Assembly (NCBI RefSeq): GCF_022458985.1
Contig: NC_061789.1
Location: 11,543,707 to 11,607,706 of the forward strand
DNA: 64,000 nucleotides
Reading direction: 5' to 3'
From: Mugil cephalus
Taxonomy: Eukaryota
Shown here: piece after piece, positions 3,935 through 61,879 of the stretch
How the letters are laid out: every line of letters starts with the position of its first letter
Position numbering within the stretch: the stretch's first letter is position 1
Notes under the pieces: generated by a model
Seen by the model: only the letters and a program-made list of their open reading frames with translations
The model's database searches: none
Told to the model about the DNA's origin: nothing
Made by a program: the position numbers and the translations under genes

Positions 3935-4052
3935 CGTTCCTCCTGCTGATCACCTCCACGATGGACGGGGGGAAGAAGCCCACTCTGTCCGTCCCTCTCT
4001 GGCTGTCGTGGATGTGGCCCTTCCAGCGTCCGTCCACGTGCTGCTCCAGCAC
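3935..4052 (-). CDS. caskin2: caskin2 exon: SH3 domain part [39 protein letters not shown]
   Basis: Acceptor cctcacag|GTGCTGGAG and donor aacg|gtcagt. Matches human [37 protein letters not shown]. Confidence 0.85.
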
Positions 4053-10180: not shown

Positions 10181-10234
10181 GCGAGTCCAACTGCCCAAAA
10201 ACCTCCCAGTCCTCACGAGAAACTGTCGACTCAC

Positions 10235-10380
10235 CACTTCGTAGTGCCCATACTGAGCCGCCAGGTGCAGAGGGATGTGTCCGTCCAGCGACACGCCGTT
10301 AACCGAAGCTCCGGAGCGAAGCAGCATCAGGACAGATTCAGATTTACCCTGCCAGGCTGCATAGTGCAGGGGACGCATTC
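10235..10380 (-). CDS. caskin2: caskin2 exon: ankyrin repeats 2-3 [48 protein letters not shown]
   Basis: Acceptor cgttgcag|GAATGCGT and donor gtg|gtgagt. Matches human [48 protein letters not shown]. Confidence 0.9.
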
Positions 10381-10493
10381 CTGCAACGCACGTCGCCAAC
10401 AGCCCGTCAATCGCAGCCACAAATACACATCGGCTTATCATGAATTTTGAACGTTCATATAGTGTCAGTCGACTGTCTGTGTGGGTCTCTAAC

Positions 10494-10591
10494 CGTTGCT
10501 GTCCTTGACGTCCACGGTGGCCTGAGCCTCCAGCAGCGCCGACAGCAGCTCTGCGGTTCCTGTGAGGGCGGCGTGGTGCAGCGCCGAGAAC
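10494..10591 (-). CDS. caskin2: caskin2 exon: ankyrin repeat 1 [32 protein letters not shown]
   Basis: Acceptor cctccatcag|GTTCTCGG and donor aacg|gttaga (weak GT donor). Matches human [34 protein letters not shown]. Confidence 0.8.
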
Positions 10592-12439
10592 CTGATGGAG
10601 GTCAGAGGTCAAAGAGAGAGAGAGGGAGTGAGAGAGAGTGCAATCCTCAGCTAACCTCAATTTACAAACAGGCAGCAAGATTACGACATACTGACATTTC
10701 TGCCATTGTACTGGAAATATCAGCGAAAAAAACAGGCATCTGGATTTATTTTCGTATCGTTACAACTAGAGATTGACCGATGTATCGGGCCGATATTTGT
10801 GTTTTTCACTGGTATCGGTATAATGATACATTTATTTATTTTTTTTCCCCTTTTACAGTCATCCACAGGTAGCCCTGTGCTGCTGGAGACGCTGCGGACC
10901 ACCGACTGTATGTATTATGGACACACTCCTCGTGACATCACCCACTGGATTCTGAACGTTGAAAATGAAGCCCGGAGGGAGCGTAGCCCATGGTCGGCAT
11001 GTTGGATGAGCTTTATTCCGAGAAATACACTATTGATAACAAATTGTTTTTTGTACCAGGCTGTGAACATGTTTAATATTGCTGTAAAGTTGAACTGGAC
11101 TCAAGCAGCCACTTGGTGAACTGCAATTGTTTTGCCATTCCGCATGGACTTCATTGCTCAGACTCAGAGGTTGCTGCAGACCCGTGCAGCCCATACATTG
11201 CCCCTCCCCCACTAGCAGAGTGTGTGCAGCTGGGAACTGGAAAATGCTTGTGGTCTACCTATTTTACCTGTTTATTTAGTACCTTAGTTATTTAGTAAGA
11301 GTGTTAAATATTCTTTGAGATCCACAAATGTTTTTGCTTTAACTGAGACTTGAACATTTGTTATCAACATGTCATTGTTATCATGTAAATGGGAGGAGGA
11401 AAAGCAGTATTGGCTCCATATATAAAAATCAGCGGCACATATTGACCATCGGCCAAGGCTGATATAAAAAAAAAAATCGGCATTGGCCCTGAAGAGATTT
11501 ATGACTTGTAAGTCATTTGTAGCCTTAATGTGAATAGAAACCTACAGGATGCAGACCCACCAAAAGACACTACATTGTTCAGAACATCAATTAATTTTGA
11601 GGCCTGAGGAGAAAATGTTGCACAATAACGGTTGATTATTAGCTCACACTGATCCGCCAAGTTGCAGTAAACAAAATCCATTAAATGTGGACTTCCTGTT
11701 GTGTTTAATGTTGCGTGTCTGACACTGAATACTCTGGCGATCTCTGTGGGTATGAATAGTCTCCCACAAAGGCGTCGCTTTAAGAGCCTGACAAAGAGAC
11801 ATATGTCTCAGATTGCATGAAAAGCCCTTCACATTCCCAGTGTTGACTGTAAGCGGACAAAACGCGCCACATCAGTTCGTAGCGCTGTAAATACAATAAA
11901 TAACAGAGCAGAGTCTGGGAGGAAAAAACTGGCGACTGCCGTTTTGTTTTTAATTTTGTTCAAATTAACACGTCCCATCCATTTGATTCACTGCTGAATC
12001 AGAGCTGCTGTGTCTGGACACGCTGCTGTATGAATGAACCAGAGGGAGGAGGAAGATGATTGTGTTACACAGTGAGTCACAAAGAGACCTGCACATACAG
12101 GTAACCTGCAACACCTGGGAACACAGCAGAATATCAGACACACCTTCCTCCCTGAAACATCTGCTGCCAGCTGAGTGACTGTGTGGACGCAGGGATCTAA
12201 CGTCTCCTCTCATGTCAACAAGCTGCTTATTAAAGTATCAGACAAAGGCAGCTCTTAGAATTATCAACAACTTAAAAGCTACGAGTATGTGAAATCAGAG
12301 CTGCCGTTGTTTTGTTATTAATAAAGGCGCGTTGGCACTTTATATACAGCCACAACATTAAGACCACTAAATAAATAAATAACGTTGATCATCTTGCAGC
12401 AATTCTGCCTGGAAAATTGGACCTGGCATTTGTGCGGAT

Positions 12440-14949: not shown

Positions 14950-15700
14950 ATTATGTCAGTATTTTCTTGAATTGACCATCACTGTGTTTTCTAGATCCTG
15001 CTCATATCTTACCTTTCTGTGAGAGCACAAACTGTTGCTGTACATGGGTTCGAACCAATTCTAAAAATGGTTGCTAAAGGTGTTCCGCAGGGATCAGTTT
15101 TAGGTCCTCTACTCTTTAGTTTGTACTCCAGAGAAGAGCTTGTTTTTCTCCCAATCCATTACACTGGTAACATTTCCTGTATGCTCATGTTGCTGCTAAT
15201 CTTCAACGCCACTGTATAGATAAAAATCTTTACAGAACTAGTGACCATATTTGGAACGGACATTACATTTAACTGGGATGAACTTCTTTTTGGATTTGTA
15301 CACTCAACTACTGTAAGTGTTACGCTGCAAGAAAAGCAATTACAAAGAAATGGCTTAAACCTGACATCCCAAGTATAGAAGAATGGTATGATATTATCGA
15401 TGATATATTTGTGATAGAAAGAATTACTTTCTCATCGAGACTTCAAGGGTTTCTTTATTTTTATGCAAACTATTCAATTGTTTATTTTTTTTTGTATTAT
15501 GAACATGCACCCCATGTTCATATGTTTTGTTTGAAAATGTGTTGGTAAAGGGAAAAAAATGGAGCACTGGATCAAAATTAGTAACAAGGTAATGAAGATT
15601 CTTATTTGCAACATTGTTGAGATGTGACTCCAAATAAAAGTAAAATGAAAAAAAAGCAATATTTCTGAAATTTTCGATGAAGTACAATTGTGATTTGTAC
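14950..15700 (+). mobile_element. LINE retrotransposon 3' fragment (RT domain tail plus 3' region)
   Basis: ORF contains the RT motif GVPQGSVLGPLLFSLY. The downstream frame encodes WLKPDIPSIEEWYDIIDDIFVIERITFSSRLQ, typical of the ORF2 C-terminus, followed by an A/T-rich tail. Confidence 0.65.
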
Positions 15701-18700
15701 GTGTTTCGAGATTTCGCTTTGAGGAAGATGGACTTCAAAAGAACTTCAAAAGAACAAAAGAACGACCCCCTGTGTTATCTCTGGTGATGCAGATGATGTG
15801 TTATTGCGAAAAAAGTGTTTCCATTGCACTTTTGCGATACACATTTATATTTGTCTGAAAAACCACCTCATGAGAGCATAAAAGTTTTTTAGCGATATTT
15901 GAGAGGTTTCTTCAAATTGTAGGTGTTCCCATTACCATTTTTTATTGCAGTATTTAGGTTTTGCGCATTTCTTGGGGTAATGGAAACTCATCAAATGAGA
16001 TTCTATGAACAAATAAAGCTTAATTACTCTCTAATAAGAATTCATATTTATGGAAAAACAAAAGGATGACAATTCTTTTGAGGTTTTTACTGATTTAATA
16101 ACAACACTTTATTTTTAACAAACAGCGGACTCAGCTTATCAGCCTAACGGCCTCTGAATGACCTGATAGAGACCGGACGTTAAGAAACTAACACCCACCC
16201 AGTCTTGGCTCGGTGCAAACGATCCAGTAAACACACCTCTTCCTTCAGATGTCGAGTACGTTCATGTTCACAGCTTTGGTTTCAATTTTGCAGCCACCTT
16301 TTACGAGAAAAACTGTGGGTTTAGTTTTTGGTATTTTACTCAGAACATTTACAACCAGGCTTTTTATGAGAACAGGTTGAGGCAGGCTGACACACGCAAA
16401 ACGATTTACAGTAAGAATCAGTGAAGACCACACAGATGTCTACACACATGGATCCACTTGTGGATCAGAAACTAATTAAACCGATCTGTGAGAAGCTGCC
16501 TGAGCATGTGGACGTAGTGTATTGCTCAATGAAATAATGTAGTAGTGGACAGGATGACTTTTTAAGTGTTGCCGACAACAACTGGTCTTTTAAATTATGA
16601 TTTAGGCCGCAGCTGCAGGAGATGAAGGAAAAACCACACATAAAAAACCACTGAAATAAATTGCTGATGATTCGTATGATTCATGCTGAAATGATGGTGT
16701 TTTGGTTATATACGGAGGGTTCATTCATACTTATGTATCGTCAATGGTGTTTAAAAGTTTAAAAACTAAAGGTGATGCTCATTTTGCAGACGATGTCCTT
16801 TAAACAACCACAGAAGAAGACACAAACCACAGTCAAAGTTGACGCTCAAAAAACGAAAGGTAAAAAAACAGGACAATTATTCTAATGTTCCGCAGTCCTA
16901 CCCGAGCCTTAAGGCTCATTTGAGGTGCTGCAGGACATAGACATTTGGGTTCATTTTTTGTTTCTACTCCCTGCTTCACTTTCAACAATGGCGATGGAAA
17001 CTTTCACCAAAATTTTGCCGAAGACGAGTCACGCAAATCCGTGCATCTCGGAGCCTCCTCAGTGAACCTGATCCAAAACAGTCAACTTGGAAATTGTGGA
17101 AAATCAATACCTCATACAACAACACAGCTTAACCCCCAGCAGCAGGGCCGGACTCTCCTCCCTCCTCAGCTGTGCGACGGCAGCTCGGGTCTCTCCCCCC
17201 AAGACAAAAGGCCAGATCTCCCACCATCACGGGGATTCACAGGGACCCATTCCAGCTCGGCTCTCCATAGAAACTCGTCCCAACGCGGAGCCAAACGGGC
17301 CGCCAGAGGCGTCAGACTCAAATACTAATTTGTCTCCCAGAGGCCTCCTTTTATACTGTGTGTGTTTGTTTCTCACACACTGGCATGCATGTCAATAAAG
17401 ACAAATAATCTCAGTGATGGATTGCCAACCTGCTCAAACACTAGCACACCCTTTAAAAACCTCCGATTTGTGTGTGAGGCGGCGACTTCAACGCGTTCAC
17501 TTTCCCTCCACTCAAGCAGACGGCAGGTCTGGGGATACACCTGGAGAGGTGGGCAGGAACCAATCGGGATCGGTGCTGAACACTTGGCAAAATCAAAAAA
17601 AAAAAAAAAAAAAAGTGAGCCAAGAGGAAAGTATGTCAGCTTTTGTTGAGGCAGAGTTCTGGCGAGGAGACACGAATTCCTTTCTGTTTCATTAAACATA
17701 ACCTCCGGCTCCGTTTCTCCTCCTCCTGCAGATCTATTCCGAATGCAACCGCTTCATTTGCTCAAAGTTTCTGTTGTCAAAAGTCGCAGTGGGTCTAACC
17801 CTAACAATCCCACGAAGACTCGTCAGGAAGTTTACGGAATTAACTTGTTCTGCAGCTGAAGATGCAACAGAACTTTAAGAAACACGTGATTGAAACACAG
17901 CAGTTGTGCTGATGCTTCGTTGTGTCTCACGTTTAGATTTGTTTGGAAGTCAGGAAGGAGGGAAAAGACGATGCAAAAGTTGCTTGAAAATCAGCAGGTT
18001 TTTTAAGCTTTCGTCAGTGTCAGAATAATCGGCGACAGTCATTAGCTCATTAGATGACTCTTAACTGTTGAAAGGTCATTCGGCGCACTTCTTTTTCAAA
18101 ATGTGAACACATACTACAGGCTTACTGTATCCTTGGCAACAACATGCTTCGCGTTTCTAGTAAAAGTTTACAACAACCATTAATGTTTAATATGATGTGT
18201 TACGACTTGTGAAACGCGAAAATGGAAAACAATTAAATCAGCGTCGTCATCCGAGGCCTCCGACCTGTCCCCACTTGTATCTGAACAGCGGGAAAGGAGA
18301 CGCAAATAAACGATTAGTTATTCCGTAGAATAACCGCGCATTTCTTTCAGCAGGTCGTAACTCTGACGACCCAACAAAATAAACGTCACAGAAACCTCCG
18401 TGATGTCTGGGAACCGGCAGGCGTGAGAACAGAGTTCCTGTTAGCAGTTTGACTGCGTGTCAACATCAACAAGCTGCTGCCGCCGCTGCTGGTGTGACGA
18501 GTAGACACCCGAGGATTGTGGGAAGTCGTGTGTTGTGTTTAGATGCGGCGGTGCGATTGCAGCGGGATGGGTGGGGGATGGTGGGTGGAGGGCGCAGGGC
18601 CCTACGAGCTACCGGCGGCGCTGATGAATAATGAGAAAGCTCTTCCTGTCTGAGACCTGCATCCCCACGGAGGCCATTATCCACCACACACACAGACAAA

Positions 18701-19729
18701 CACACCATCGCAGCTGTTGGACGCTACTGCAACAGTGTCACCATTTCAGAATAAAAGCTTGAGGCGCTGCGACCTTCCTGTGCCGCCATCGCACTATTCC
18801 TGTCATTGTGTCTTTCACCTTAAACGTCACTGTTTAGTCTAGTTCGTTTGTTTTGTTTGTAAAAGAAAAAATTCTCACAGTTAATGTGACAATGTGGCAA
18901 TGTTTCTTTTTTAATTTTAATTTAATGCTCATCAAAACCACTTAATGGATTGATCTCTTCATTGTCTAATAGTATAAATGCAGTGCAGAATATGGGTCAG
19001 TACACAGTGACGTGAAGGCAAAATACTTTAAATGACACGTTGATTCATCGTCTGAGTCGCTGATCCCTCTAATGAACTTGTTTCAGCCCGACTGATGTGA
19101 ACCTCCGCGTCATGAGCTGATTTATGGATCCGTTTGTCCTCCGTGAATCTGCGACTTTAACCCTCCTGCTCTCGGGCTGTCAGCGCAGCATTAAGTCATC
19201 CCGGCTCTGTGTAAACACTCCTCTCAGATCGGTCCGAGTCTGCCTGACCTCCGACCTCTGACCCCGCCCCCGGCTCCTCCTCCTCCTCCACCACCCCCCC
19301 GTCCCTCCTAGGGGGTCGACAAAAGGAGCGGGGCACTTGACAGAGCTTTAGGACTGATGCGGTGGTCCACAGGCCCTCCACTCCAGTCCCCTTTGTTGGG
19401 ACCACAGTGGCGGCTGGAAGCTGAAAAGAGCCCCACTGCTGTTTTATGAACTGATGAGACACTTTGTGACACGTTCCGTTTAAGCAGCGGCCGGAGCTGA
19501 TCACGTGGCCCCCGAAATTAAACTCTCGAGCTCTCCGCGCCGGCTTCAAGGAAACTGACTTTCGCGTGTATCCGTCAGCGTTTCTGTTTACACGGACGCT
19601 AAATGAAGTGATCTGATAAGACGCGATGTGTGTTTACTTTCCCACAAAACATTAATCACAAGAGAAATGTGGGTCCAAGGCTGCCAAGCCTCAAAGCTGC
19701 TGAACGCATAACAGGAGAAGCAGAAAAAC

Positions 19730-19935
19730 AGAAGAGCGGGGAAGAGAGAGGGGGAAGAAGAAGAAGAGGAAAAGGAGGTTGTGAATAGGAAAGGGAGTAG
19801 GGGAGAAAGGGGAAGAGTAGGAGGAGAAGAAGGAGGAGGATGAGGAGGACTAGGAGAATGGAAAGAAGGAGAAGGAAGACAGCTGAGAAGCAGCAGAGGG
19901 AGGTTAAGAAGGAGGAAGAGAAAGAGGGGGGGTTG
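19730..19935. repeat. Purine-rich (GGA/GAA/GAG)n low-complexity tract
   Basis: About 200 bp that is almost entirely G/A on the plus strand (gaagagagagggggaagaagaagaagagg…). Confidence 0.8.
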
Positions 19936-20691
19936 TGTTTACATGGTAGCTCATATCAGGTTGTTCGCTCAATCTGAATGAAAGTGTCGGAGGCCTTTTT
20001 CCTTCTGATTACTGGAGGAAAACTAAAGAACCAGATGCTAATCAAAGCTGCCGATTCATTAGCTGGAGCTCCACAGCTGGGTTTTCTCCCACCCTGCCAT
20101 CGACACTCCATCATTTCTGAGGCTTCCTGCCGTCCTCCCGCCTCCCGAGTCTTATCTCGTCCGTGGCCTCCGAAATGACCTGCGGCCTCATCTGCTGAGC
20201 TTCCAGGAACCCGCCGCTTAATCGGCGACGCGCGGAAAACAAACCAAATTACAACAACCGAGGCAGCTTCTCTGTGGAGGTTTGACGGCGGATTCAGCTG
20301 CACGTGGAAAACTCCGAGACCCCTCCGAGATGCTTCAAAAAAAAAAAAAAAACTCTCAACAGAGAGAAATATTGATGAGGCTCCAACTTTCATCCACTCT
20401 CGCTCTCCTCTCAGGCTTTGAGGGGGGAACTTGAAGCAGTGGGCGTTTAAGTGCGATAGGATATCGGAGCGCGAACAGGCTGCGGAGGGTTCCAACCCAA
20501 ATGCTGGGAACGAGCTTTAAATGATGTTTTGACACCAGGCTCTGAATGTGCTGAGTCAACGCAGCAGCAGCAGCAGCAGCAGCAGGAGTTACTGCAGAGT
20601 GGAAACATTTTAATAGAAGCGCAGGGGGGCAGGCTAACGACTGGAAGCAGAGTACAAACCTGTCTTTTATAGCGGTGACTTCATCACTTAC

Positions 20692-20743
20692 CCATCTGAG
20701 TCCTGGTAGTTCACATTCAGCCTCTTGGTGGATCCCAGCAGCT
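20692..20743 (-). CDS. caskin2: caskin2 exon 2: (K)LLGSTKRLNVNYQDSDG
   Basis: Acceptor gtgtttcag|AGCTGCTGGGATCC and donor gatgg|gtaagt. Matches human KLLGSTKRLNVNYQDADG. The phase (2 nt in, 2 nt out) links exon 1 to the FSALHH exon. It lies ~20 kb from exon 1. Confidence 0.8.
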
Positions 20744-23700
20744 CTGAAACACAAGAAGGCCAAAGACTGTCAACATCTGGGCTCTGGCAGTCAGATTAGA
20801 AAACACCTGCGCCTCCGCCGACGCTCTCGACTCTCGTAAACCTCCCAGCGGCGCGTTAACGCTGCGATAAATCAGAGAAATTAAAAACGAGAGTGCTTAC
20901 TGGAGTTTCCAGCGCAGCGATATCGGTTAAAAACAGGAAGTGACAACATGTGAGATGTGATTTACAACCTGCCCGGGAGCTGTGCATGAACAAGTCGAAT
21001 ATTAAACTACACCAGTCACCCCCCTCCCGCTGTGAGGTTGCGTTGGGGACGGTTTAACCACTGGCTTGACCGGAGGAGATGTAGTCGGTCTCAGGGCGCC
21101 GATATCTGCGTGTTTCCTGTTTACTCAGCGGGCACCTGATCATAAATCCTCCTTGAGGAGCTTCATTAGGCCGTGACCGGGGTCAGAGGATGGCCTGCTG
21201 TTAAACCCCCCCCACCCCTTTGATCTGCAGTCAGACGGGGGCTCCTCGAGGCTTCGACCGGCCGCCGCCGTTCGTCCTCAGGCTCGGAGCGTCCTCCTTT
21301 TCCTCTGGAATGCGGTGGCATTCACAGCTTCAGCCTGACAGTCCGCCCTCTGTTCGGTACAGTGGACGTTCGCGGCCTGCGTCCAATCGGCGTGTCATCG
21401 CAATGCCACGGCCCGGCTGGAGTCAGAAAGGCGGAGGTCGGGGGGGGAGGGGGGCCGCCTCTGAATCATCAGGCCTTTCAGAGCGGTGAGCAGAGTCACA
21501 GGACGCAAACCAGTTTTAACAATTACGCCGTTTTCTCTCGGGTTCAGAAATGACGTGGGAACCTTTTCAGATCAGAACAAATTCTAACCTCAAAATGAAT
21601 CAGTGTAAAGTAGCGTCTGAGTTTTCTTCTTATTTAACTCAGATTAACCATCGTTAGTACCGGCAGCAACGTCAACAAAGCAACCACTACAGTAATCTTT
21701 TAGTTAGCACGGTGTCTGAAGCTGAGCCTGAGGCTGCGTCGGCATTTGGGCTCGCAGCAGGTCAAAGGTCAGACAAGTTTACAAAAGAGGTCCCAGACAG
21801 AAGATCCAGCCGACGCACCTCTGATCATCCTTTTAAAGACGGCCCCCTCGAGGGAGCGCCTTTAACATCTCCTTCCCCGCCGCCGCCCTCCCACCGCCAG
21901 CGCGTTTGAAGTGTTGACTATCTCGGGGCAGCGGCGGCGGCGGCGCCCCCTCTTCCCCCTCCTCTCCTCTGGGGCCGCAGCGCAGCTTTGATAATGACCT
22001 GGATTTTATAATTAATGAGAATAAATCAGCACGCAAAGCGGAATGAAAAACACAGAGAGGAACGGGGGCTGCGGCGCGGAAAAAACGAGAGCGCCTCAAC
22101 CGAGGTCTCACGTCCTCCAGGTACAGTTCTATTATTATTATCGCGGCGATGAATGTGAGATGATCAGACAAGCGGTTCCGCACCAGCTCTTTCAGTATTC
22201 GGCGATGCCGGCCCATAGCTCGAGTCTGATCAGATACACTGATCTGAATGTTGACTGCGTACGAATCTGATCTAGATCTGATGCCTTATTCAAACAATGA
22301 CGGTTCCTGTTCTCAGGAGACGTGTTAATCTGCAGGAGAGAAGCGCTCAGAGTGATGCTTCTTCACCTCAGCTTTGGTGGGGACTCCAGACGGTTGGTTT
22401 TAATTATTTCTACGAGGTATTTGAAGCGTCTTTTGGGCTCATTTTTCTTCTAGAGTGAGTTCATCTATCAAGAAAAAAATAATTTACGACTCTAAAAATT
22501 AAATATATTGAGTAACAGTGTTTTCTCCTGAAAACAGATGGACGTTTCCCTTCTAGATGATGCCCCCCCGCCTCCCAGCAAGATACAGTCAACAGTTAAA
22601 CACAGCAGATGCTGGTCAAGCTAAAGCTCTCCTCATCTGCTGCACATTTGTTCAAAGTTATTTTTAAGGCTGTTTATGGAGGGAGGTTGAGAGGCCCGGG
22701 GCCGAGCTGCAGCCTCCTCCAGCTCCGCCGTTCGCAGGGACCTTTTATAATTTCAACCGAAAGTTTGACGAGCCCGCGGATCCGCCGCCGCAAGAATGCA
22801 CCGAGGAGGAGAACGAGGAGGAGGAGGAGGAGGAGGAGTGGCAGGCTTTTTTTTTTGCAGGAGTCTGCAAATTTGAGAGGTCTCGTTTAGGATCTGTTGT
22901 AAAAAAAAAAAAAAATCGACATACTAAAATTAGACAATCATAACTATGATTATATGTCTACAGGCAACGCCTCGCACTTTCTTTTTTGTTTCTCCACATT
23001 TTAGACAAAGCAGCAGAGACGCTTTCTCTCCTCTCGCTGCAGCGGCAGCCGCTCCGCACTAAATCTTTCCTCCACGAACGCTGGCCGTCCTCCAAACGCA
23101 CCACAACAGGCTCCGGTCAGAGAGTCAAACGCTGCGGCTCCCTCCACTTCTGATTTACGCGGCAGATTACATCTGTTAGTCTAAATATAAGACCTTCCAG
23201 TTTTTAAGACGGCCGTGAAAAGAGGCTTCATCTGGTTAATAAAGTTAAGTCCGAAAAAGCCGCAGAATCTCAAGTGTTGACCAACAACACACGACCACAA
23301 GTAAGTGGACACACTCATTTTTGTTTAAAAGCCTCTAAAGCCAGATGAAAATTACTTCTCACAATCAACTCCTGAAACTGTTTTGATTGGATTTAAACAA
23401 AAAATGTGGGAAATTTACAATTAAATTACAGAAACGGTTTAACAAGAAATACGCCAAATTGTGCTGCCACTTGCTGCAGATGTTCCAGGAACTGAAGGAG
23501 ATGTTTTAACGTCGGCATCGTGGAAGGCTCACTGCTGTTGTTTGCGAACTTACGGACATAGTTCCACGTGCAATGCTCAGAAAAAGCTAAAGTTAGCTTG
23601 TTTAGGTTAACGGGGCGTCTATGGGGCGTCCACACAGGAAGAGACCATGAAAGTTAACCCAAGAGGGTTGGCCCCCCTCGGAGATGTGAAGTAGGCGAGT

Positions 23701-47959: not shown

Positions 47960-48131
47960 CGTCAGCAGGAACAGACTTCCAGCCGTACGGTGGCCGCTGA
48001 TTCTTCAGCTGCTCCCAGGCCGGTTTGGAGAAGCTTCCCGCCGACAGGAAGACTGACACGGAGAAGCTGAAGATTTTGTTGACCAGAGGATTGTTCCTCA
48101 CCGCTTTCCTCAGAGAACACGCTGCTTCCAC
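47960..48131 (-). CDS. st6galnac2: st6galnac2 exon: VEAACSLRKAVRNNPLVNKIFSFSVSVFLSAGSFSKPAWEQLKNQRPPYGWKSVPAD
   Basis: Acceptor gtctacag|GTGGAAGC, donor gacg|gtgcag. Matches human ST6GALNAC2 stem region CRHLLHLAIQRHPHFRGLFNLSIPVLLWGDLFTPALWDRLSQHKAPYGWRGLSHQ. Confidence 0.8.
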
Positions 48132-48289
48132 CTGTAGACACACAATGAACTATGACTAGATATGACAGTGGTAAATTAATAAAACCACACACGCTGCAAA
48201 AACTACAGAAAAAAGAAAAAAAAATGGACGTCGGGTTCATGGAAGAATTACTGAAGAGGTCTGACAGGGCAAAGGAAGCAGCTGTTGGT

Positions 48290-48600
48290 AAAGACACAAA
48301 ATAACCACAAAGAGGTACGATACAACCACAAAGACAAAAAACTAAAACTACAAAGATACAAAAAATAACCTCAAAGAGACAAAACAACCACAGTGATACA
48401 AATAACAACCAAAAGAGATGAAATACAACCACAGAGACGCAAAGCAACAACTACCGAGATACAAAAAACAATTACTGAGATACAAAAAAAACAACACAGA
48501 GGTAACAAACAACAGCCACATAGATACAAAAAACAACCAGACACTGAACAACCACAAAGATACAAAAAATAACCTCAGAGACAAAACAGCACAGAGACCC
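48290..48600. repeat. Minisatellite (~20 bp unit aaccacaaagatacaaaaaat) in an st6galnac2 intron
   Basis: About 15 imperfect tandem units. It creates a spurious 162-aa low-complexity ORF (47962-48450). Its reverse complement is related to the array at 59570-60060. Confidence 0.8.
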
Positions 48601-52559: not shown

Positions 52560-52875
52560 GCTGCAGTATTGGTCCATGTAAATGGATTGGAGTTGGGCCT
52601 GAAACACTAAAATACACTTCATAATGTTGATCTATGTTCAAGTAATTGACAGTTGCCATTGCCAACCGAATGCTGGGCCGAATGCACACACACATTGCAT
52701 TTTGGGATTTGTACTGATACTAAAATAGTCTGTTTGAAACCTGCAAAATGAGTTAACATTATTTATTTATTTGGCTGAAATAAACTTTTATTTTGTGAGA
52801 CTGAAGGAGAAGTAAGGTAATGTGACTCCACTCTCAGACAGTACTACACGGACTCTGGCTCCAAACTCGCAACAT
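52560..52875. repeat. Local segmental duplicate (copy A of a ~300 bp block; copy B at 54405-54780)
   Basis: aatgttgatctatgtt(c/g)aagtaattgacagttgccattgccaacc…ctgtttgaa…aaataaacttttattttgtgaga…aatgtgactc…acggactctggctcca(a/g)actcgcaacatg is shared at about 85% identity. Confidence 0.7.
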
Positions 52876-54129
52876 GGCACCGCTTGTATCCCTGTAATTC
52901 TAGCTTATCTTTTCCCAGTGGGAGGAAGCGCGAACATGCCATCCATTGTTTCTACAGTCTCTGATCTATATGTGCAGAAACATACTTGTAAATGCACCAG
53001 AAATCAGTGCTGCCATACTCACCATTAGCATCGGCTCTAGAGTGTCATTGTTGAGTTACTGCCTGAAACAACAGATGAGGACACAACAATGACTCCCAGG
53101 TAATGACAACCATCATTACTGTAATTACCATGACAGTAGAGAGCCAGCACATGTTATTTGTGGATGTGATCTAGTGCGTAGTGGTTGTTCTGCAGTGGTA
53201 GGTTAGTCAAGTTTGTCAAAGCGTTAATTTCATTAGATCTCTGTTTATAGATTTCAAATGCTCCTGACTGAAGTGTCATTTCCAAAAAGGCCTCATGACA
53301 GTAAATAAATATAACATTTAGGCGTCCTGCTGTCCCACTCACATTTTAACATTCTGGTGGACTCCCCCCATAGATGGAGACAACAACTCCGCGGACTGTG
53401 AACATTTTTGCAAGTGAAACTTTGCTGATGCTCAGCATCCACAACCTTTAGAGATCTGGTTCAGCCCAGGCCCAAATAAGTCAGAGATGATTTTGGACTA
53501 CATTCTGTCCATTTGTTTGGGCCCCTGATTTCCTGCGGGCAGCAGCACTTTGTTTTCTGATTTGTGAGAAGCTCAAACTAGTTAGGTGACATGTTTAAGG
53601 GGAGGGACCTACAGACACTTTATAACATAAAGATGGGATGAAATACTCTTCCACTACAAGACTTTAACACTGTCAAGACCTCAAAGACCAACTGCTTCTA
53701 CAAGACATAACAATGGCCAGCAAACTTGCAAATACTAGTAAGTATAATTTATATACAGTAATCTCAGTCAGGCTGTAAATTAACCAACAGAGCAACAACT
53801 TGTCTTCTTCTGAGTACCACTGTTCAATATCTCATTAACATTTGTGCTACCTTAATGAAAAAAAAGCAAAGAATTATTTCAACTTTCACATTAAACCTGC
53901 AATTATACATATTACTGACTGATCAGTCACCTGACTCAACTATTTGAATCGATTCTTTCTAATTTTACAGTTTGCACACACACTAATTTGTTATATCAGT
54001 CTTAACTCATCTTTCAGCATCTTTCAAATTTCTCATATAATGTCTTATATTGACACATGTTGCTGATTTAGCTGAATTTGATTACTTATTACAGAAGGAA
54101 TTGTATTTAAATTTCAATATTACATGTGA

Positions 54130-55010
54130 AGTCAGTATTCAGTGCAGATTATTCCTAACCCTAACACAGACTACACTGCAAGCTTTATTGATGGCTGAAT
54201 GGTTATTTTTGGTCAGTGTCATTTATTTAATCAACTGCTGTTCATTGCTGTAAAGTAGAAGATGATAAAACATTTTTCTGTCCAAGAGAATGATTTCACT
54301 GATGTTTATATGAATTATTTGTTGCCAATTTAACTGAGAAAGTCAAAATAGTTTCAAAAGTCTGGATCAAATACACTTCAGATAATAGTTGTTAGTTTTA
54401 GTTAATAAAATGTTGATCTATGTTGAAGTAATTGACAGTTGCCATTGCCAACCGCTCCATGATGCTGGGCTGAATGCACATGCGCACTGCACTCTTCGAT
54501 TTGTATTGACAGTGGGATAGTCTGTTTGAAGCTTACAAAATGAGTTTCTTTTTTGCTAAAATAAACTTTTATTTTGTGAGATTGTATGTGAATAAATGAA
54601 TTAACCAGCTGACTAAAACAACACCCCAACGTTAACTCCAAAGGGGAAAGTCTGCAATCAGTAGTTAACAATCCATAAGAGTTAACACAACCAAGAGTGG
54701 GTCAAGCAGAAGCAGGGTAATGTGACTCAGACAGTGCTACACGGACTCTGGCTCCAGACTCGCAACATGTCGTAACAGTCAGTATTCAGTGCAGATTATT
54801 CCTAACTCTAATACAGACCACTGCAAGCCTCTATCATGTAACAGCTGCACTTTACATACTTTACTGATGACTGAATGATTATTTTTGATCAGTGCCATTT
54901 ATTTAATCAACTGCTGTTCATTGCTTTAAAGTAGAAGATTATAAAGCTCTATCGTTGCCCATTTAACTCATGAAGTCAAAATGGTTTCAAATGTGTGGAT
55001 TTCCTACAGT
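54130..55010. repeat. Tandemly duplicated ~650 bp unit upstream of the GIMAP-like gene (54130-54400 / 54405-54780 / 54780-55010)
   Basis: The block gtcagtattcagtgcagattattcctaac(c/t)ctaa(c/t)acaga…tgaatg(g/a)ttatttttg(g/a)tcagtg(t/c)catttatttaatcaactgctgttcattgct occurs twice. Between the copies lies a paralog of 52560-52875. Confidence 0.65.
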
Positions 55011-55543
55011 AATTTAATTTGTGTTTAACTCAGGACACATGCATGCTGCAGCGTAATCAGAATATTAATGAGACTTTCCAATGTCATTATACACTATCTA
55101 CATGTCTGAACTGATTTTGACCTTTAAAAGGTGAAGGCATAGAGAGAGCTGCATCGTCAGCGTATAGAAAGATTTGCATGAACAAGTGTGTAGAATAGAA
55201 TAGAATATTAATTTAGCATAACTTTCCAGAAAAAAATACAGAAGAAATCAATGATTCACTGAAAAGATATAGGGCTCAGTATATCTACAGAGAATTGGAG
55301 GATTTATCAGCATGAATCAGTGAGCCAGGGGTTCTTTGGAGGAGTTTCAGGCAATAACACTGATTACACCCACAGCCAGTGGTGGTCGATTGTTCTCTGT
55401 TGACTATTTACACCACACCAGTTACACCAACTGCACAGCAAACTGAGAGTGTTGAGAGATTAAAACAAATCTGGTTATGAATGATAAAGAGAGTGTGCTG
55501 CCAGACTTAATATTAACAATGTCTGTTTGAACCTCTCCTGCAG

Positions 55544-56223
55544 AGGAGCTGAGGATTGTGGTCATGGGAAAGGCCGGAGCTAGGAAGACTTTACTCATCA
55601 ACACCATCCTTGGGAAGGAGAGTACAGCGGAGTACTGTGGTTTAGAGTGCAAGGTGACCCAAGGAGTGTATGAGAAGGAGCCAGTGGTTTTCATCGATAC
55701 TCCTGGTCTTCTCCGCACCGACTTAACTGAAGAGAAGTTAACAGAGGAGCTCCTGAAGTGCATCCTACATGCTGCTCCTGGTCCTCACGTGTTCCTGTAT
55801 GTGAAGGAGAATGAGACTTTTACTGGAGAGGAAAAGCGCGCTGTGAAAGACCTTAAAGGGATTTTTAAAAATTCAAAGGCGTTCATCTTGGGTGTTGTCA
55901 TGAGTGGTGAAGTCATATCTGATAGGGATCATGATGAAATACGGAGCTTTATGGGAGAATTCAGTGGATACGTTACTTTCAACACAGAAGAGCCCAACGT
56001 GTCCGAGCTAATGAACAAAATCAAGGAGATGGCTGAGAAACAGGGACATTACACCAATGAACTGTATGAAAAGGCCAGAAAACTGGACAAAAAAGCAGAA
56101 TTCATCGAAGCCTTTGCTAATAAAATTATCTCATTTTGTGGTCTTGAAGGCTTCAATGATTTGAATAAAGTTCTTGATGCGTATGCAAAGTTTTGTGCCG
56201 AGATGATTCGTGTTTCCCAATGA
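55544..56223 (+). CDS. GIMAP/IAN-like immune-associated GTPase, main AIG1-domain exon (…EELRIVVMGKAGARKTLLINTILGKE…FIDTPGLL…PGPHVFLYV…)
   Basis: Acceptor tctcctgcag|AGGAGCTG, stop at 56221-56223. P-loop-like GKxGxxKT, DTPG (G3) and the GIMAP-typical PGPHxxLLV motif. No in-frame ATG upstream in the exon, so the start is in an unlocated 5' exon. Confidence 0.7.
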
Positions 56224-57759
56224 TACGGTGCAAAATGTGTCATAATGTGAATTTTCCACAATCAACAGAAGATTCACCAATATATAATAGACTAATTTGA
56301 AATCTGTGATCCAAAGCCTCCAGTCTAGGAACTGGATTTGGAGAAAGAAATGACACTTTCAGAAAGTTTCAGGTTGGTGCCACTCTACATCTACTCAGGT
56401 ACTTTTTCACTGCAATACGAATGAGTTTTTAATCTACCACTGCTGGAGTTTGAGGAAAATTCAAATGTTTATGTTCAAATGATTTCATGCTTTAGTAACA
56501 ACACAATATTCATGTTAATTTTGAAGGAAAACTGAGTGTGAAACGAAATCACAGCTTCGAATAAAATATGTTTCAAATCAAACGGTATAATTTTTGTGTT
56601 CCTGGTCAGCTATGTTATCTGTGGTTCACAAATAGTGATTTATTGACAACTGAATTTCATAAATGTGCTGGACTGGTACAAAAACCTGAGGAGTCCAACT
56701 CATTTCAACTGTATGAAACAACAGCAGCGTCTTCAGCGCCCCACATTAAAACCGACCAGCTACCTACACAGGCCTGTAAGGTCCACTTATGCAGGAATCA
56801 GGATGGTGGGCAGCAAAAAAAATGGAAATAATCCTTAATAACTATCATTTAAGCAGTTTCTGTTCAGGAGCTCGTGGGTCCATCAATATGTTGTGGTTAA
56901 GGAATACAATAAATCTGAAGGATGCACATGTACCTTAGTAGTTACAGTTATAAGGTTAGTAGTAAGAATTTAGGGTGGCACAGGATTTTCAAAACATGCA
57001 ACTTTTCTCGTCCTACTGTCACAGTTAAGTGGGGGCGAACCCAAGGGGAGTCTTGCAATTAAATATAAGATCCTTGTCTTCAAGATGAGATAAAACAATC
57101 CTTTATTTATTTCACAGTGGGGAAATTTCCAGTACTGCAGCAAGATAGAGTTTAAAGGACAGTGCAAATAAGTGACAGCCCTCTTCCCCAGTCTTTTCAG
57201 TCTCTTTTTGTCTGCCAGATGCTGCTGCTCCAGCAGACTACTACTACTAAGAGTCATAGAGGGACCCCTGTAGTGTTCCCTGCACTTTGAAGGAACTAGG
57301 TTTCCTTAACAGTTAGAGTCTGCTCTGGCCTTTCGTTTTAAGTGCCCTAGCATACTCAGACCAGTCCAGTTTTTTGTTCAGGTATGTAATTCTCTGGATG
57401 TTCACTGGTGTGTATGGTGTGTTAGTGTTTGTGCAGAAATCCACTACCAGCTCCATGGTTTTAGCCACACTCACCTGGGGGCAGTTCAGAGTCCTCTGTT
57501 TTCTCCTCTATATTCTCTGAAAGCCTTTCAGAAGTCTGCACTTTAGAGGGAGAAGAAGAAGGGAGCTAGGACCGTTCTCTGAGGGGCTCTTATGCTGCAA
57601 ATGATCACATCAGACACACAGTCCTGTGTCCTCACATACTGTGGTCTATTGTTCAGGTAGTCCAGTAGCCAGTAGTCAGTGCTCCCAGCCTTCTCAAGGT
57701 GAGAGAGAGCTCTTCCCAGGAGGTAGATGATGGCATCATCTACTCAGATTCTGAACTGA

Positions 57760-58270
57760 CAGTAGAATGCTGTCTATACTGTCTTTTATGCACATCAACA
57801 CAAGTGACAGACTAGCTTCTGGCAAGGAAAGCCACTGGTCCAGACGGCATGTGCTGGATCAACTGCAGTTTGCATATAAACCGAGTATTGGGGTGGATGA
57901 TGCTGTCTACCTGCTACGCAGTGTCATGTTTTTTGGTGTTTGCAGCACCTTTAAAATGATACAACCCTTCCTTCTCAATGGAAACCTAGAGGTAGCAGCG
58001 GTAGACAGCAAGTTGACTGCATGGACCATCGGCTACCACACAAACAGACCACAGTATGTGAGCTACTCTACAGTACAGGTTTTCGACAATGGACAAACGT
58101 GCCTGAAGATCCAGGCTCTCAACCAGCTGCTGCCAGATCACCAGGAAGTGCAGATGCAGTCCTTCAGCAGTTGGATACGCTCTGCAAATGAACCAACAGC
58201 TTGGAAGACAAACCAAGATTTGTGTGTCCAAGCGTTTCTTCAGCAAGAAAATAATGCATCCTGATCTGCA
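57760..58270 (+). mobile_element. Degenerate LINE/retroelement reverse-transcriptase fragment
   Basis: 165-aa ORF containing LDQLQFAYKPSIGVDDAVYLLRSV, similar to RT LDPLQFAYRPxRGVEDA, followed by a divergent RT-like segment. No complete domain. Confidence 0.5.
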
Positions 58271-58329
58271 TTTGTGGGGAAAACCTCAGAATGACATCAC
58301 AGGAGCTCCAACTGCAGTGGTCAAACCAA

Positions 58330-58890
58330 ACTGGTGTCCAGACTTTTAGATCATAGCTTAAGGTCATACAAGGCTGTCAAGAAGCCCCTGATCAATAAGA
58401 GACAGAGGTTAGCTCGGCGTTGTTGGGCCCAAGCACATAAGAACTGGACAGTCAGGAACTGGAAGAAGACTCTGTGGTCAGATGAGTCCAGTTTCCAGCT
58501 TCATCTTCCTCCTAACTAATGTGAGGGTACGCAGAAGGCCAGGCGAAGCATTATCTCCAGCGTGTACAGTACCTACTGTCAAAAATGGTGGAGACAGTAT
58601 CATGGTTTGGGGATGCATGAGTGGTGCTGGTGTTGGTCATCTCACTGTCTGTGATGGCACATAGAGCTCTGACAAATATTGTGCCATTCTCTAAACACAC
58701 ATGCTCCCTTCTGCACGTGCACTGTCCCTCTGAGGTCAAAACTGGATGTTTCAACAAGATAATGTCCCTTGCCACTTCCTCAGAGATTTTTCTCTATATT
58801 GACATGATAGCATCAGGCAGTTGCTGTGAATCTGTCGGCTCCACATCTATGATGCAAATCTCCCATTCCACCACAGCCTAAAGCTGCTCT
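58330..58890 (+). mobile_element. Tc1-like DNA transposon fragment (transposase middle to C-terminal part, frameshifted)
   Basis: Translations give KPLINKRQRLARRCWAQAHKNWTVRNWKKTLWSDESSFQL, RVRRRPGEALSPACTVPTVKNGGDSIMVWGCMSGAGVGHL and FQQDNVPCHF (DDE region). There are several frameshifts and stops. Confidence 0.8.
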
Positions 58891-58899
58891 TTTGGATTG

Positions 58900-59560
58900 A
58901 AATTAGGTGACTGGAGGCCATTGGAGTACAATGAACTCATTGTAATGCTCCAGAAACCAGTTTGAGATGATATGAGCTTTGTGACATGGTGCATTATCCT
59001 GCTGGAAGTAGCCGTCAGAAGATGGGTACACTGTGGTCATAAAGAGATGGACATGGTCAGCAACAATACTCAGGTAGACTTTGGGCACCAAGGGGCCCAA
59101 AGTGTGCCAAAAAAACACAGATGATACAAGGCAGGATGGATTCATGCTTTTATGCTGTTTACGCCAAATTCTGATCCTGCCATCCAAATGTCACAGCTGA
59201 AAGCGAGACTTGTCCGACCAGGCAACGTTTTTCCAATCTTATATTGTCCAGATTTGTTGAGCCTGTGTGAACTGTAGTCTCAGTTTCCTTTTCTTAGCTG
59301 ACACCCGGTGTGGTCTTCTGCTGCTGTAGCCCATCTTCTTCAAGGTTCGATGTGTTGTGCGTTCAGAGATGGTATTCTGCGTTCCTTGGTTGTAATGAGT
59401 GGCTGTTTGAGTTACTGTTGTCTTTCTATCATCTCCAACCAGTCTGACCTCTGAAAATCCCAGTAGATCAGCAGTTTCTGAAATACTCACACCAGCCCAT
59501 GTGGCACCAACAACCATCCCACATTCAAAGTCACTTTAATCCCCTTTCAGTAGTTGTTTT
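58900..59560 (-). mobile_element. Tc1-like DNA transposon fragment (transposase N-terminal HTH and DDE parts)
   Basis: Minus-strand ORFs give the HTH part (…RRPHRVSAKKRKLRLQFTQAQQIWT) and DGRIRIWRKQHKSMNPSCL…FQQDNAPCHKAHIISNWFLEHYNEFIVLQWPP. It is 3'-truncated where it meets the plus-strand copy. Confidence 0.8.
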
Positions 59561-59569
59561 GCCTCACAG

Positions 59570-60060
59570 TGTAAATGTGTATCTAACTGTAGTTTTGTGT
59601 GTCCTTGCAGTAGGTTGTGTGACTTTGTAGTAGTAAGTCTTTTTGTAGTTAGTATGTCTCACTTTGTATCCATTGTGTGTCTTTGTGGTTGTTTTCGGTC
59701 TCATTGTAGTTATGGTTTTGTGTTACATTGTAGCTCTTTCGTGCATCTTCGTAGTTGTTTTTGTCATTAGGTATTTTGTTTCATCAGTTGTCGCACTGTA
59801 GTCATTTCGGGGGTTTTGCGTCTTTTTATAATGGTTTTGTTTGTCTTTGTTGCTTCTCTGTCTCATTGCAGCGGGTTTGTGCCCTTTGTAGTTGTTGCAT
59901 CTCTTTGTGGTTGTTTTCGGACAAATTGTAGTTATCTTAAGGCCCTTTTGTAGAGTTTTTAGACTTGCTTTTGTCACTTTGTAGTTTATCGTAGTTACCT
60001 CACTGTAGAGGCTTTGAGTTATTTTGTAGTTTTTCGCCTCCCTGTGTAAATTTCCATCTC
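59570..60060. repeat. Minisatellite (~20 bp unit ctttgtagttgttttcggtctca-like), inverse-orientation relative of the 48.3 kb array
   Basis: Tandem units with the recurring motifs ttgtagtt, tttgtggttgttttcgg and cattgtag. Lies immediately beside the Tc1-like fragment. Confidence 0.75.
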
Positions 60061-60169
60061 ACTGTATTCGTTGTGTCTCTTTGTAATTTTAAAAAAAATC
60101 TTTTAATAGTTTTGTATATATTACAAGATTACATGGTGATTTCTTCATGTATTTGTATATATATTCATT

Positions 60170-60175
60170 TTTATG

Positions 60176-60211
<36 letters not shown>

Positions 60212-60215
60212 TATT
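60170..60215. repeat. (TA)n microsatellite
   Basis: atatatatatatgtatatatatatatatatat. Confidence 0.9.
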
Positions 60216-60461
60216 TTTATTTTTTTCATGAAGTGAACTTAAGTGACAGTCTCTGATTAGTGAAGGAGAGGTAGACTTGAGAAAATGTACTGCTCAACCT
60301 CCTTATTTGTTGCTTTGAGCCAGACTTCTGACTGGTCAGGTGGTGTGTTGTATGGGATGGACCTACTGGCAGCCTATAATGTAATGATGAGATGGAAATA
60401 GTCAGAAGAACACCTGGGCTGTAACAAGACCTCACAGAAATACTGCTTTTGAGAAACAAAG

Positions 60462-60489
60462 ATGTCAAGTGAAGAGCAATCACAGCTTA
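60462..60489 (+). CDS. GIMAP-like gene B, tentative exon 1 (MSSEEQSQL + 1 nt)
   Basis: ATG followed by donor ctta|gtgagt. Its phase (1 nt) exactly fits the acceptor of the 61020 exon. No homology support for so short a peptide. Confidence 0.35.
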
Positions 60490-61019
60490 GTGAGTATATC
60501 TTTGTAGTACTAAAGTGATAGTTTTGGTAATGTTTGGGTTAGTTTTATAAGCTAATAACTATTTCTTGAGACATAAACTAGCACCAGTTTGGATGAATTT
60601 GATTTTATATTGAAAGAAATCATGATGCAGCATGAATTATACACAAATCTGATGTTTTATATTGTTTTGAGTATATGCAGTAGGCAGTCTGTTTATCACT
60701 AAGTAGCATTTTAGAGAACATTTCAACAGTGGTCACTGCACTGTAGCTGTAAATCCTCAACTAATGAAACTATTAAGCTTACATACAAATGTTTTGGTAT
60801 GTTTTGCCCCCACTTGATTCATTATGACATTAAGTCATTATAATCAATCATCATCATATCAATCATTGAACTAATTAGCCATTTGAGATCAGTGAATGGA
60901 TGTTTGTCAGCAGTTTCAAACAGGCTTCATTGAGGCAGATTTATAGTGCTCTGTAGTCAGGGCTGATGACTAGAGTATATGAAGACATGGAGATCATAAC
61001 TGGGACATTTCTCCAACAG

Positions 61020-61879
61020 TTGAGCCACACCAGAAGGAGCTGAGGATCATCTTGGTTGGGAAGGTGGGAGCTGGGAAGACCTCTGCAGGAAACACCATCC
61101 TGAGTGGTTCACAGCCATTCCCAAAACCTACGTCCTCTTTTGGGCTCAACACAAAAAAGTGTCAAATGGAAACAGAGATTATTGGTGATAAAACAGTGAC
61201 CGTTGTTGACACCCCAGGCCTGTGCAGCATTGGGTCCCTGTCTGAGGAAGAGACAGTGAAAGAGCTGAAGGAGTCCGTCGAACTGGTCAAACCGGGTCCT
61301 CATGTGTTCCTGCTTGTGATGAGATATGGGAAAGTCTTCACAAAAGAGGAAGAAAAAACACTGGAGATTCTTCAGCGCACTTTTGGTAAAAATGTGATGG
61401 CCTACACTCTGATTTTGTTCACCCATAGACAGGATGTGGACAAAACGGCTGTCGATACATTCAGTAATGCTGATGGAAATACCAGCCTCAGAGACACAAT
61501 CATTCAGTGCCACTTTAATTACGCTGTTCTCAACATTAAAGGAATGAATGATACTCAAGTCCCTGAGCTGCTGGACAAGATCAGTGACATGGTGACAAAC
61601 TCTCAAGGAGGCTTCTACTCCATTCAGATGCTCCAAGAGGCTGAAAATTCAATGGAACAGCAGCAAGAGAAAGAAAATGAAGAACCAGAGGAATCAAAAG
61701 GCCAGTTACGGCTTCTGAAAATGAGCGGTTTAATTGGAGCAGCTGCTACATGTGCGGGGATGTACTTTTTTGGCCGTGGTCAACTGATGCCTTTGTCTAT
61801 TGTGGGTGGGGTACTGGCAATGACACTAGTATGTACGGGAGTAATTGCCAGAAACAAAATCAGGCGATGCTTCAAATAA
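61020..61879 (+). CDS. GIMAP/IAN-like immune-associated GTPase, main exon with C-terminal transmembrane anchor (…ELRIILVGKVGAGKTSAGNTIL…VVDTPGL…PGPHVFLLVM…LIGAAATCAGMYFFG…)
   Basis: Acceptor ttctccaacag|TT, stop TAA at 61877-61879. AIG1 GTPase motifs G1 GKVGAGKT, G3 DTPG and PGPHVFLLV, a coiled region, then a hydrophobic C-terminal segment as in GIMAP1/5-like proteins. Confidence 0.75.

Follow-up and report, generated by a model that had tools for sequence, protein, structure and literature searches.

The membrane-anchored members of the GIMAP family of AIG1-type GTPases bind GTP and have been proposed to act as membrane scaffolds, and human GIMAP2, which carries a double hydrophobic tail, is an anchored member that is regulated through heterodimerisation by the soluble GIMAP7, which promotes its GTP hydrolysis (PMC8201404). 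The teleost GIMAPs have undergone a large lineage-specific expansion, which has brought their number close to 190 in some species, and those of zebrafish respond to viral infection (PMC9245644, PMC8201404). In the cunner, GIMAP genes were reported to be the progenitors of the type I antifreeze proteins (PMC10980009, PMC11687183); this case is separate from the locus that is discussed here, but it shows the plasticity of fish GIMAP clusters. The present analysis concerns a 64 kb stretch of DNA from Mugil cephalus (64,000 nucleotides, referred to as the window, to which all of the positions refer unless another locus is named). A preliminary description had pointed to two GIMAP-like reading frames at 55544-61879, here called copy 1 and copy 2, and to the lineage-specific expansion and immune involvement of such genes in teleosts, both of which are upheld by the literature cited above. 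Our results make it very probable that the interval holds two separate, tandem, same-strand teleost GIMAP (AIG1-type) GTPase genes, of which copy 2 encodes an anchored canonical protein and copy 1 a soluble, pseudo-GTPase-like one.

Identification of two tandem GIMAP genes

Both of the copies lie on the plus strand, copy 1 in a stop-free stretch of 230 codons (55531-56220) and copy 2 in one of 298 codons (60983-61876), and no other stop-free stretch in any of the six frames of the window is as long. The window was simulated 200 times with a first-order Markov process as the null model for the length of the open reading frames (ORFs); the longest frame was at most 295 codons and the second-longest at most 218, both of which are exceeded by the real frames. 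The comparison with the Pfam AIG1 profile (PF04548), which the preliminary description had recommended, placed both of the ORFs above the curated cut-off of 27 bits and bore out their proposed membership of this family; copy 2 scored 157.2 bits (E=4.8e-46, profile positions 1-211/212) and copy 1 half of that, 77.7 bits (E=1e-21, profile positions 1-206). Among the solved structures, those of GIMAP1, 2, 4, 5 and 7 were matched by sequence, the best match of copy 2 being human GIMAP7 (3ZJC, E=3.1e-29) and that of copy 1 human GIMAP4 (3LXX, E=5.5e-17). Protein searches returned hundreds to thousands of homologs, and the close relatives of both copies all came from teleosts and had names of the form 'GTPase IMAP family member ...-like'. 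No near-identical protein was found in the searched collections, in which the best matches were 68% identical to copy 1 and 51% identical to copy 2, and both genes appear to be new members, so far unannotated, of a gene family that is well known in teleosts. An immune role of both would be suggested by their family membership alone. The two genes are separated by 4.2 kb from the stop codon of copy 1 to the ATG of copy 2, copy 2 ends 2.1 kb from the edge of the window, and a search of the window for further AIG1 copies or exons revealed none beyond these two.

Each gene is predicted to consist of a TATA-type promoter, a short ATG exon, a phase-1 intron and one large coding exon. In copy 2, the promoter block (60291-60399, plus strand) contains the GGGATGGACCTAC motif, which is followed by CCTATAATGTAATG; it is paralogous to the promoter of copy 1 and matches positions 18698-18833 of a locus from Lates japonicus (L001), upstream of a copy-2-like gene. 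A (TA)29 microsatellite is present at 60156-60214, about 140 bp upstream of this conserved block. The coding part of the putative exon 1 (60462-60489, plus strand) comprises 28 nucleotides that encode MSSEEQSQL plus one nucleotide and end in phase 1 at a GTGAGT donor (ATGTCAAGTGAAGAGCAATCACAGCTTA, then gtgagt). It was the sole candidate in a scan of 59500-61020 for ATG...GTRAGT, it is in phase with the acceptor at 61020, and the homologous position in Lates reads aaagATGTCCACAGAAGAA... (MSTEE...), all of which agrees with the 28-nucleotide ATG exon that had been suggested earlier. Intron 1 (60490-61019, plus strand; 530 nucleotides) ends at 61019 with the acceptor ...tctccaacag, and joining the exons keeps the frame. 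The main exon (61020-61879, plus strand) encodes the AIG1 domain, an acidic linker and a tail anchor, and terminates with the stop codon at 61877-61879, which gives a modelled protein of 295 amino acids. The stop codon is overlapped by an AATAAA hexamer. The AWTAAA hexamer occurs 244 times in the whole window compared to the 99 ± 10 expected from dinucleotide shuffles; this excess reflects A/T-rich low-complexity tracts, which makes the spotting of poly(A) signals uninformative in the window.

For copy 1, the preliminary description had given neither a first exon nor a promoter. Both can be modelled upstream, outside the interval that it had covered: the promoter block (53520-53631, plus strand) contains the GGGAGGGACCTAC motif followed by the TATA-like CTTTATAACATAAAG and is 72.8% identical to Lates L001 9820-9944, which lies upstream of the gene for the Lates protein P0122, and a scan for an ATG and a donor, together with direct reading, yielded a putative coding exon 1 of 25 nucleotides (53713-53737, plus strand; ATGGCCAGCAAACTTGCAAATACTA, then gtaagt), which encodes MASKLANT plus one nucleotide and ends in phase 1 at the GTAAGT donor. 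This exon model aligns with the Lates exon 1 (ATGGACAGCAATG, then gtgagt), and the N-terminus that it encodes resembles that of the Mugil protein P0324 (MASKPLKTAAEELRIVV). Intron 1 (53738-55543, plus strand) is 1.8 kb long, similar to the 1.9 kb intron of the copy-1-type gene in Lates, and holds locally duplicated blocks. The main exon (55544-56223, plus strand) encodes the AIG1 domain and C-terminal helices up to the stop codon at 56221-56223, and the modelled protein has 234 amino acids. The canonical acceptors that had been reported in front of the two ORFs were found as ctcctgcag/AG, with the exon starting at 55544, and tctccaacag/TT, with the exon starting at 61020.

Both gene types are present in Lates japonicus L001 in the matching order and orientation, as two separately annotated genes, and the copy-2-like gene, whose product has a hydrophobic tail, lies 6 kb downstream of the P0122 gene on the same strand. 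A blastn comparison of the 50-64 kb part of the window with L001 revealed a colinear series that consisted of the copy 1 promoter, an element of its intron 1, copy 1 exon 2, the copy 2 promoter and copy 2 exon 2. The Lates first exons (ATGGACAGCAATG before gtgagt and ATGTCCACAGAAGAA... before gtaagt) are located at the homologous positions and have the identical intron phase. Moreover, the four promoters, two from the window (53600-53625 and 60354-60379) and two from Lates (L001 ~9930 and ~18800), can be aligned with one another, each having GGGA(G/T)GGA(C/A)CTA, then a TATA-like box and, immediately ahead of the ATG, a CTGCxT block. In the window this promoter motif was counted exactly twice, once before each gene, and no third one was found; the shared promoter looks like a family-wide module. 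The alignment of the promoters and exons indicates that the unit of duplication was the promoter plus both of the exons. The colinearity with Lates japonicus also indicates that the gene pair is old and predates the split of these fish lineages. That the copies are old paralogs rather than a recent duplicate, as had been proposed, is therefore confirmed by this shared order and orientation and by an identity between the copies of 31% (BLASTP), which replaces the earlier value of about 35%.

Because the amino-acid identity to Lates of 38-42% implies saturated synonymous sites, conservation was compared between codon positions. The identity of the two copies to their Lates orthologs was 0.65 and 0.70 at the second positions and 0.47 and 0.56 at the third positions, and the second position was the most conserved, as is expected of coding sequence. 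Paralogs were found in clusters, as is usual in the GIMAP family, in the window, in Lates, in Epinephelus moara and on a single 22.3 Mb contig of Mugil, which carries several members (XP_047427515.1, XP_047427520.1 and XP_047427516.1) together with the gene for P0002. The Epinephelus cluster is larger and differently arranged, with two tandem copy-2-like genes and other members, and such differences in arrangement are typical for the family.

The predicted proteins and their closest relatives

Copy 2 is predicted to be a canonical tail-anchored GIMAP. Its P-loop (G1) is the canonical GKVGAGKT, it has a threonine in the switch-I column of G2 (GLNTKKC), G3 is VDTPGL, the conserved box is KPGPHVFLLV, in which the PGPHVFL columns are invariant in the family alignment, and G4 is LFTHRQD, which aligns with LFTHKED of GIMAP2 and LFTRKEE of GIMAP7. 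The membrane anchor that had been assigned to its C-terminus corresponds to a hydrophobic segment at 61793-61849 on the plus strand (residues 268-286, LSIVGGVLAMTLVCTGVIA), which has a Kyte-Doolittle mean of 2.2 over 19 residues, lies nine residues from the C-terminus and is followed by the basic RNKIRRCFK. Gly-rich hydrophobic tails are found at the same place in P0002, in P0038 and in the product of the neighbouring Lates gene. The copy-2-like gene of Lates (L001 20732-21640) encodes an odd, but formally intact P-loop (GVVEEGKS), KYGPHVFLFV instead of PGPH, LFTDENK at G4 and a poly-Gln linker before the Gly-rich hydrophobic tail, which indicates that motif drift touches the anchored lineage too.

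The closest relative of copy 2 is the Mugil protein P0002 ('GTPase IMAP family member 8-like', 289 amino acids), which is 51% identical to it from end to end, with a far higher similarity across the N-terminal half of the G domain. The two proteins have in common an MxSE... start (MASEGDSEL in P0002 and MSSEEQSQL in copy 2), an unusual PFPKPTSS insert, the switch region LCSIGSLSEE, the segment VMRYGK.FTKEEEKTLEILQ and a hydrophobic, glycine-rich tail at the C-terminus, whereas the region after G4, the sequence of the tail and the acidic linker have diverged. Human GIMAP1, GIMAP5 and GIMAP2 (PDB 3V70, 6Z3E and 2XTM), which were matched with E values of 2e-19 to 2e-28, resemble copy 2 in G1, G3, G4, the conserved box, the helical extension and the C-terminal hydrophobic anchor, and the layout of its tail anchor is that of human GIMAP1, GIMAP3 and GIMAP5. 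However, only the AIG1 domain is common to these human proteins and copy 2, and, since the family expanded separately in teleosts and in mammals, the genes are not one-to-one orthologs.

Copy 1 departs from this pattern. The preliminary description had ascribed the P-loop, DTPG and PGPHxFLLV signatures to both ORFs; DTPG and PGPHVFL(Y/L)V are indeed present in both, but the canonical P-loop is found in copy 2 only. In copy 1, the P-loop is GKAGARKT, with an arginine (AGG, 55582-55584) in place of a glycine that over 90% of 49 relatives share (G13R). The switch-I threonine of G2 is replaced by glycine (T32G), the position of the arginine finger is changed (R91T) and G4 is degenerate (LFT..D to VVM..E), with GVVMSGEV aligned to IFTRKDDL of GIMAP4; G3 (IDTPGL) and the conserved box (APGPHVFLYV) are kept. 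Of 76 columns that are conserved at 85% or more among 49 other fish GIMAPs, 29 deviate in copy 1, the highest number in the 50 aligned family members. There is no hydrophobic segment, as no Kyte-Doolittle window exceeds 1.2, and the protein is accordingly classed as soluble. An AlphaFold model (predicted local distance difference test 81.8, predicted template modelling score 0.73) consists of the G domain followed by two long helices (171-197 and 206-224), and its best matches in the PDB were GIMAP7, GIMAP2, GIMAP5, GIMAP1 and GIMAP4 (E ~1e-12), followed by Toc34. As modelled, copy 1 would thus have the GIMAP fold, with the C-terminal helices folding back on the G domain.

Copy 1 has its closest relatives in Mugil: XP_047427515.1 (P0387, 219 amino acids, GIMAP4-like) is 68% identical to it, the fragment XP_047427520.1 (P0269) is 87% identical over the first 105 residues, and XP_047427516.1 (P0324) is 46% identical. 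The Lates japonicus protein P0122 (247 amino acids) is 38% identical, and its gene resembles copy 1 in lying upstream of a copy-2-like gene. All four are, like copy 1, short, soluble, single-domain proteins with APGPHVFLYVK, LGVV(M/L), EPNVSE and GHYTN and without the canonical G4 motif. P0387, P0269 and P0122 have kept the canonical P-loop, which reads GK(A/V)GAGKT in the first two, and P0122 has also kept the switch-I threonine, while P0324 is further degenerate than copy 1 and has lost both the P-loop (GKDENKNR) and DTPG (TEGPG). The losses of G2, G4 and the arginine finger are shared with copy 1 by P0387 and P0324, both of which have full ORFs of about 219 amino acids. In a crude motif survey, which applied regular expressions to 387 fetched proteins, the carp GIMAP P0139 had the same GARKS variant of the P-loop, and AIG1 domains with degenerate motifs were common in giant multi-AIG1 fish proteins. 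Three of the latter (P0241, P0243 and P0247) resemble copy 1 in having the AIG1 fold and the conserved box, but lack the P-loop, G3 and G4; however, their domains are repeated within proteins of 1,000-3,000 amino acids, whereas copy 1 is a stand-alone two-exon gene. These domains indicate that AIG1 domains without catalytic activity are frequent in fish and, together with the GARKS variant, that the degeneration of copy 1 is not unusual for the family. The best fold and sequence matches of copy 1, human GIMAP7 and GIMAP4 (3ZJC and 3LXX), are likewise soluble, with a G domain and then long C-terminal helices, but they are active GTPases with complete motifs and the catalytic arginine. Copy 1 is without the P-loop Gly6, the switch-I threonine, G4 and this arginine, and these losses would imply that it cannot act as a GIMAP7-type activator.

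Repeats and other features of the window

The surroundings of the two genes had been described as Tc1, LINE and locally duplicated blocks. The Tc1 and duplication parts of this picture were confirmed, while its LINE part was supported weakly. In the spacer, a frameshifted Tc1/mariner transposase fragment at 58343-58775 (plus strand) covers residues ~107-249 of a Sleeping-Beauty-like transposase (tblastn E=1.3e-24), with a Pfam HTH_Tnp_Tc3_2 score of 26.9 bits that is below the 31.5-bit cut-off. A second Tc1/mariner fragment lies on the minus strand at 58915-59517 (tblastn E=3.6e-11 for 59385-58915; HTH_Tnp_Tc3_2 31.5 bits for 59239-59517). The tblastn query was a hand-written version of the SB10 transposase. 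Pfam and tblastn revealed only such frameshifted fragments on both of the strands and no intact transposase ORF, and no inverted repeats were found in 52-64 kb, which indicates transposon debris and not an active element. Two fragments that resemble the reverse transcriptase (RT) of a long interspersed nuclear element (LINE) are arranged head-to-head, one of them degraded and on the minus strand (57534-57740, tblastn E=6e-8, with motifs recognised by eye in the six-frame translation) and the other on the plus strand (57857-58060, E=1.6e-6). The query was in this case a hand-written RT consensus, and neither the LINE-like ORFs nor stitched translations gave any Pfam match, even at E values of up to 10; the presence of LINE RT fragments in the spacer is therefore weakly supported. 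The same hand-written consensus also had a weak match (E=2e-4) at 15001-15135 (plus strand), far from the GIMAP genes.

The local duplications involve intron 1 of copy 1, in which 54130-54269 is paired with 54777-54945, and the region upstream of it, where 52623-52876 is paired with 54409-54769 in the intron (including 52623-52811 with 54409-54592). An element of this intron (54124-54152 and 54776-54885) is both duplicated locally and found in the Lates intron 1 (L001 10551-10646), and could be either an old repeat or a regulatory element of the intron. No coding exon is interrupted by these duplications or by the transposon fragments of the 4.2 kb spacer. The spacer also contains a T/G-rich short-period repeat (59595-59935, plus strand), which has a counterpart at 47962-48450 (minus strand). 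Both have a period of 19-20 nucleotides and 52-nucleotide direct repeats and yield similar Cys/Phe/Val-rich pseudo-ORFs, and they probably belong to one dispersed repeat family.

Elsewhere in the window, an open frame at 10160-10678 (minus strand) contains ankyrin repeats (Pfam Ank E=9.8e-12, with Ank_2, Ank_4 and Ank_5 also matching) and probably represents an exon from a neighbouring gene on the minus strand; it may be of the ANKS1/CASKIN type. The GC-richest part, 18001-22000 (0.49-0.54 compared to ~0.43 elsewhere), which has several open frames of 117-179 amino acids on the minus strand, may be a CpG island or the 5' region of this neighbouring minus-strand gene. A strong GC skew (+0.27) characterises 2001-4000, and the third-longest stop-free stretch of the window, 228 codons at 2560-3243 (minus strand), has a translation that looks low-complexity and Pro/Ser-rich.

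Alternative explanations and the possible role of the gene pair

In surroundings as rich in repeats as these, reading frames may arise by chance or from transposons and carry GTPase motifs that are merely superficial. Chance ORFs are excluded at this locus, and the probability that we leave to this explanation as a whole is close to nil, given that both ORFs are longer than those in any of the 200 simulations, the profile E values are 1e-21 and 4.8e-46, the homologs number in the hundreds to thousands and the locus is colinear with that of another fish order. Alternatively, the two AIG1 exons might be joined across a 4.8 kb intron in a single gene, whose product would be a GIMAP8-like protein with two domains in tandem. 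Multi-AIG1 proteins are abundant in fish, and many of the top matches of copy 2 were two-domain fish proteins of 420-516 amino acids named GIMAP8-like. However, both ORFs stop where their single-domain homologs of 219-289 amino acids end, copy 1 doing so after its C-terminal helical extension, in alignment with the ends of proteins of 219-247 amino acids. Moreover, copy 2 is preceded by a conserved TATA promoter and an ATG exon of its own, paralogous to those of copy 1, transposon fragments of either orientation fill the spacer, and the orthologous Lates genes are annotated separately. We consider a single gene to be highly improbable, and it was rejected on the basis of the stop codon of copy 1, the promoter and ATG exon of copy 2 and the separate annotation in Lates.

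The status of copy 1 is less settled. It could be a young unitary pseudogene, that is, a gene in early decay that was recently inactivated by the change of the P-loop glycine to arginine and whose ORF is still open for lack of time. In line with this, the closest Mugil relatives (P0269 and P0387) keep GK(A/V)GAGKT, which makes the arginine lineage-specific, and copy 1 is the most deviant of the 50 aligned members, with half of the Pfam score of copy 2. Yet its ORF stays open for 230 codons and aligns to the AIG1 profile and to GIMAP4 without any frameshift, its promoter, exon 1, donor and acceptor are intact and conserved, and its N-terminal half is 87% identical to P0269. The GARKS P-loop recurs in the carp GIMAP, and the other losses (G2, G4 and the arginine finger) are common to Mugil genes that have kept their ORFs, which suggests that this lineage has long tolerated the loss of GTPase chemistry. 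Early decay is, in our view, an unlikely account of copy 1, which is likely to be a retained pseudo-GTPase rather than a dead gene. Several points nevertheless weigh against the interpretation of the locus as an anchored canonical GIMAP beside a soluble pseudo-GTPase. The arginine in the P-loop of copy 1 is a one-base change in one sequence, and this dependence on a single, sequence-specific base leaves room for a polymorphism, a sequencing error or a first step of decay. Furthermore, the C-terminal half of copy 1 is ~50% conserved with Mugil, and the exon 1 models of both genes are predictions drawn from the DNA. At the position of the catalytic arginine of GIMAP7, where GIMAP7 and GIMAP2 have 'GR', copy 2 has a lysine plus a one-residue insertion, and its mechanism of hydrolysis may therefore differ from that of GIMAP7. 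Finally, the idea that copy 1 and copy 2 heterodimerise is drawn purely by analogy.

If copy 2 is an anchored canonical GIMAP, it would, by analogy with human GIMAP1, GIMAP2 and GIMAP5, be situated on an intracellular membrane with its G domain in the cytosol, and it would bind GTP and form GTP-dependent dimers or oligomers through this domain. The lost motifs of copy 1 suggest that it most likely does not hydrolyse GTP and perhaps does not bind it specifically; it would probably be a nucleotide-independent partner or regulator, and the G-domain interface may allow it to pair with anchored GIMAPs, for instance copy 2, similarly to GIMAP7 and GIMAP2. As a tentative proposal, which we put forward as a possibility rather than an expectation, copy 1 might belong to a small lineage of GIMAP pseudo-GTPases in percomorphs, soluble and stand-alone, whose genes have stayed intact, with their promoters, beside the tail-anchored canonical GIMAPs and whose products would regulate the anchored partner, or serve as decoys for it, independently of nucleotides. 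So far, this putative lineage would include copy 1, its Mugil cephalus relatives and, in part, Lates, and its members would have lost the switch-I threonine, the arginine finger and G4, some of them the P-loop and DTPG as well.

The main value of these results lies in the annotation of two further GIMAP genes, each described with its promoter block and a complete exon model. Since the GIMAPs are known as a strongly expanded, immune-associated family of teleosts, the presence of such genes was to be expected. Of modest wider interest is the pairing of a soluble degenerate with a tail-anchored canonical member, which have a promoter module in common and whose order is conserved between distant percomorphs. 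The gene pair offers a concrete, testable case for the regulation of anchored GIMAPs by catalytically dead ones.

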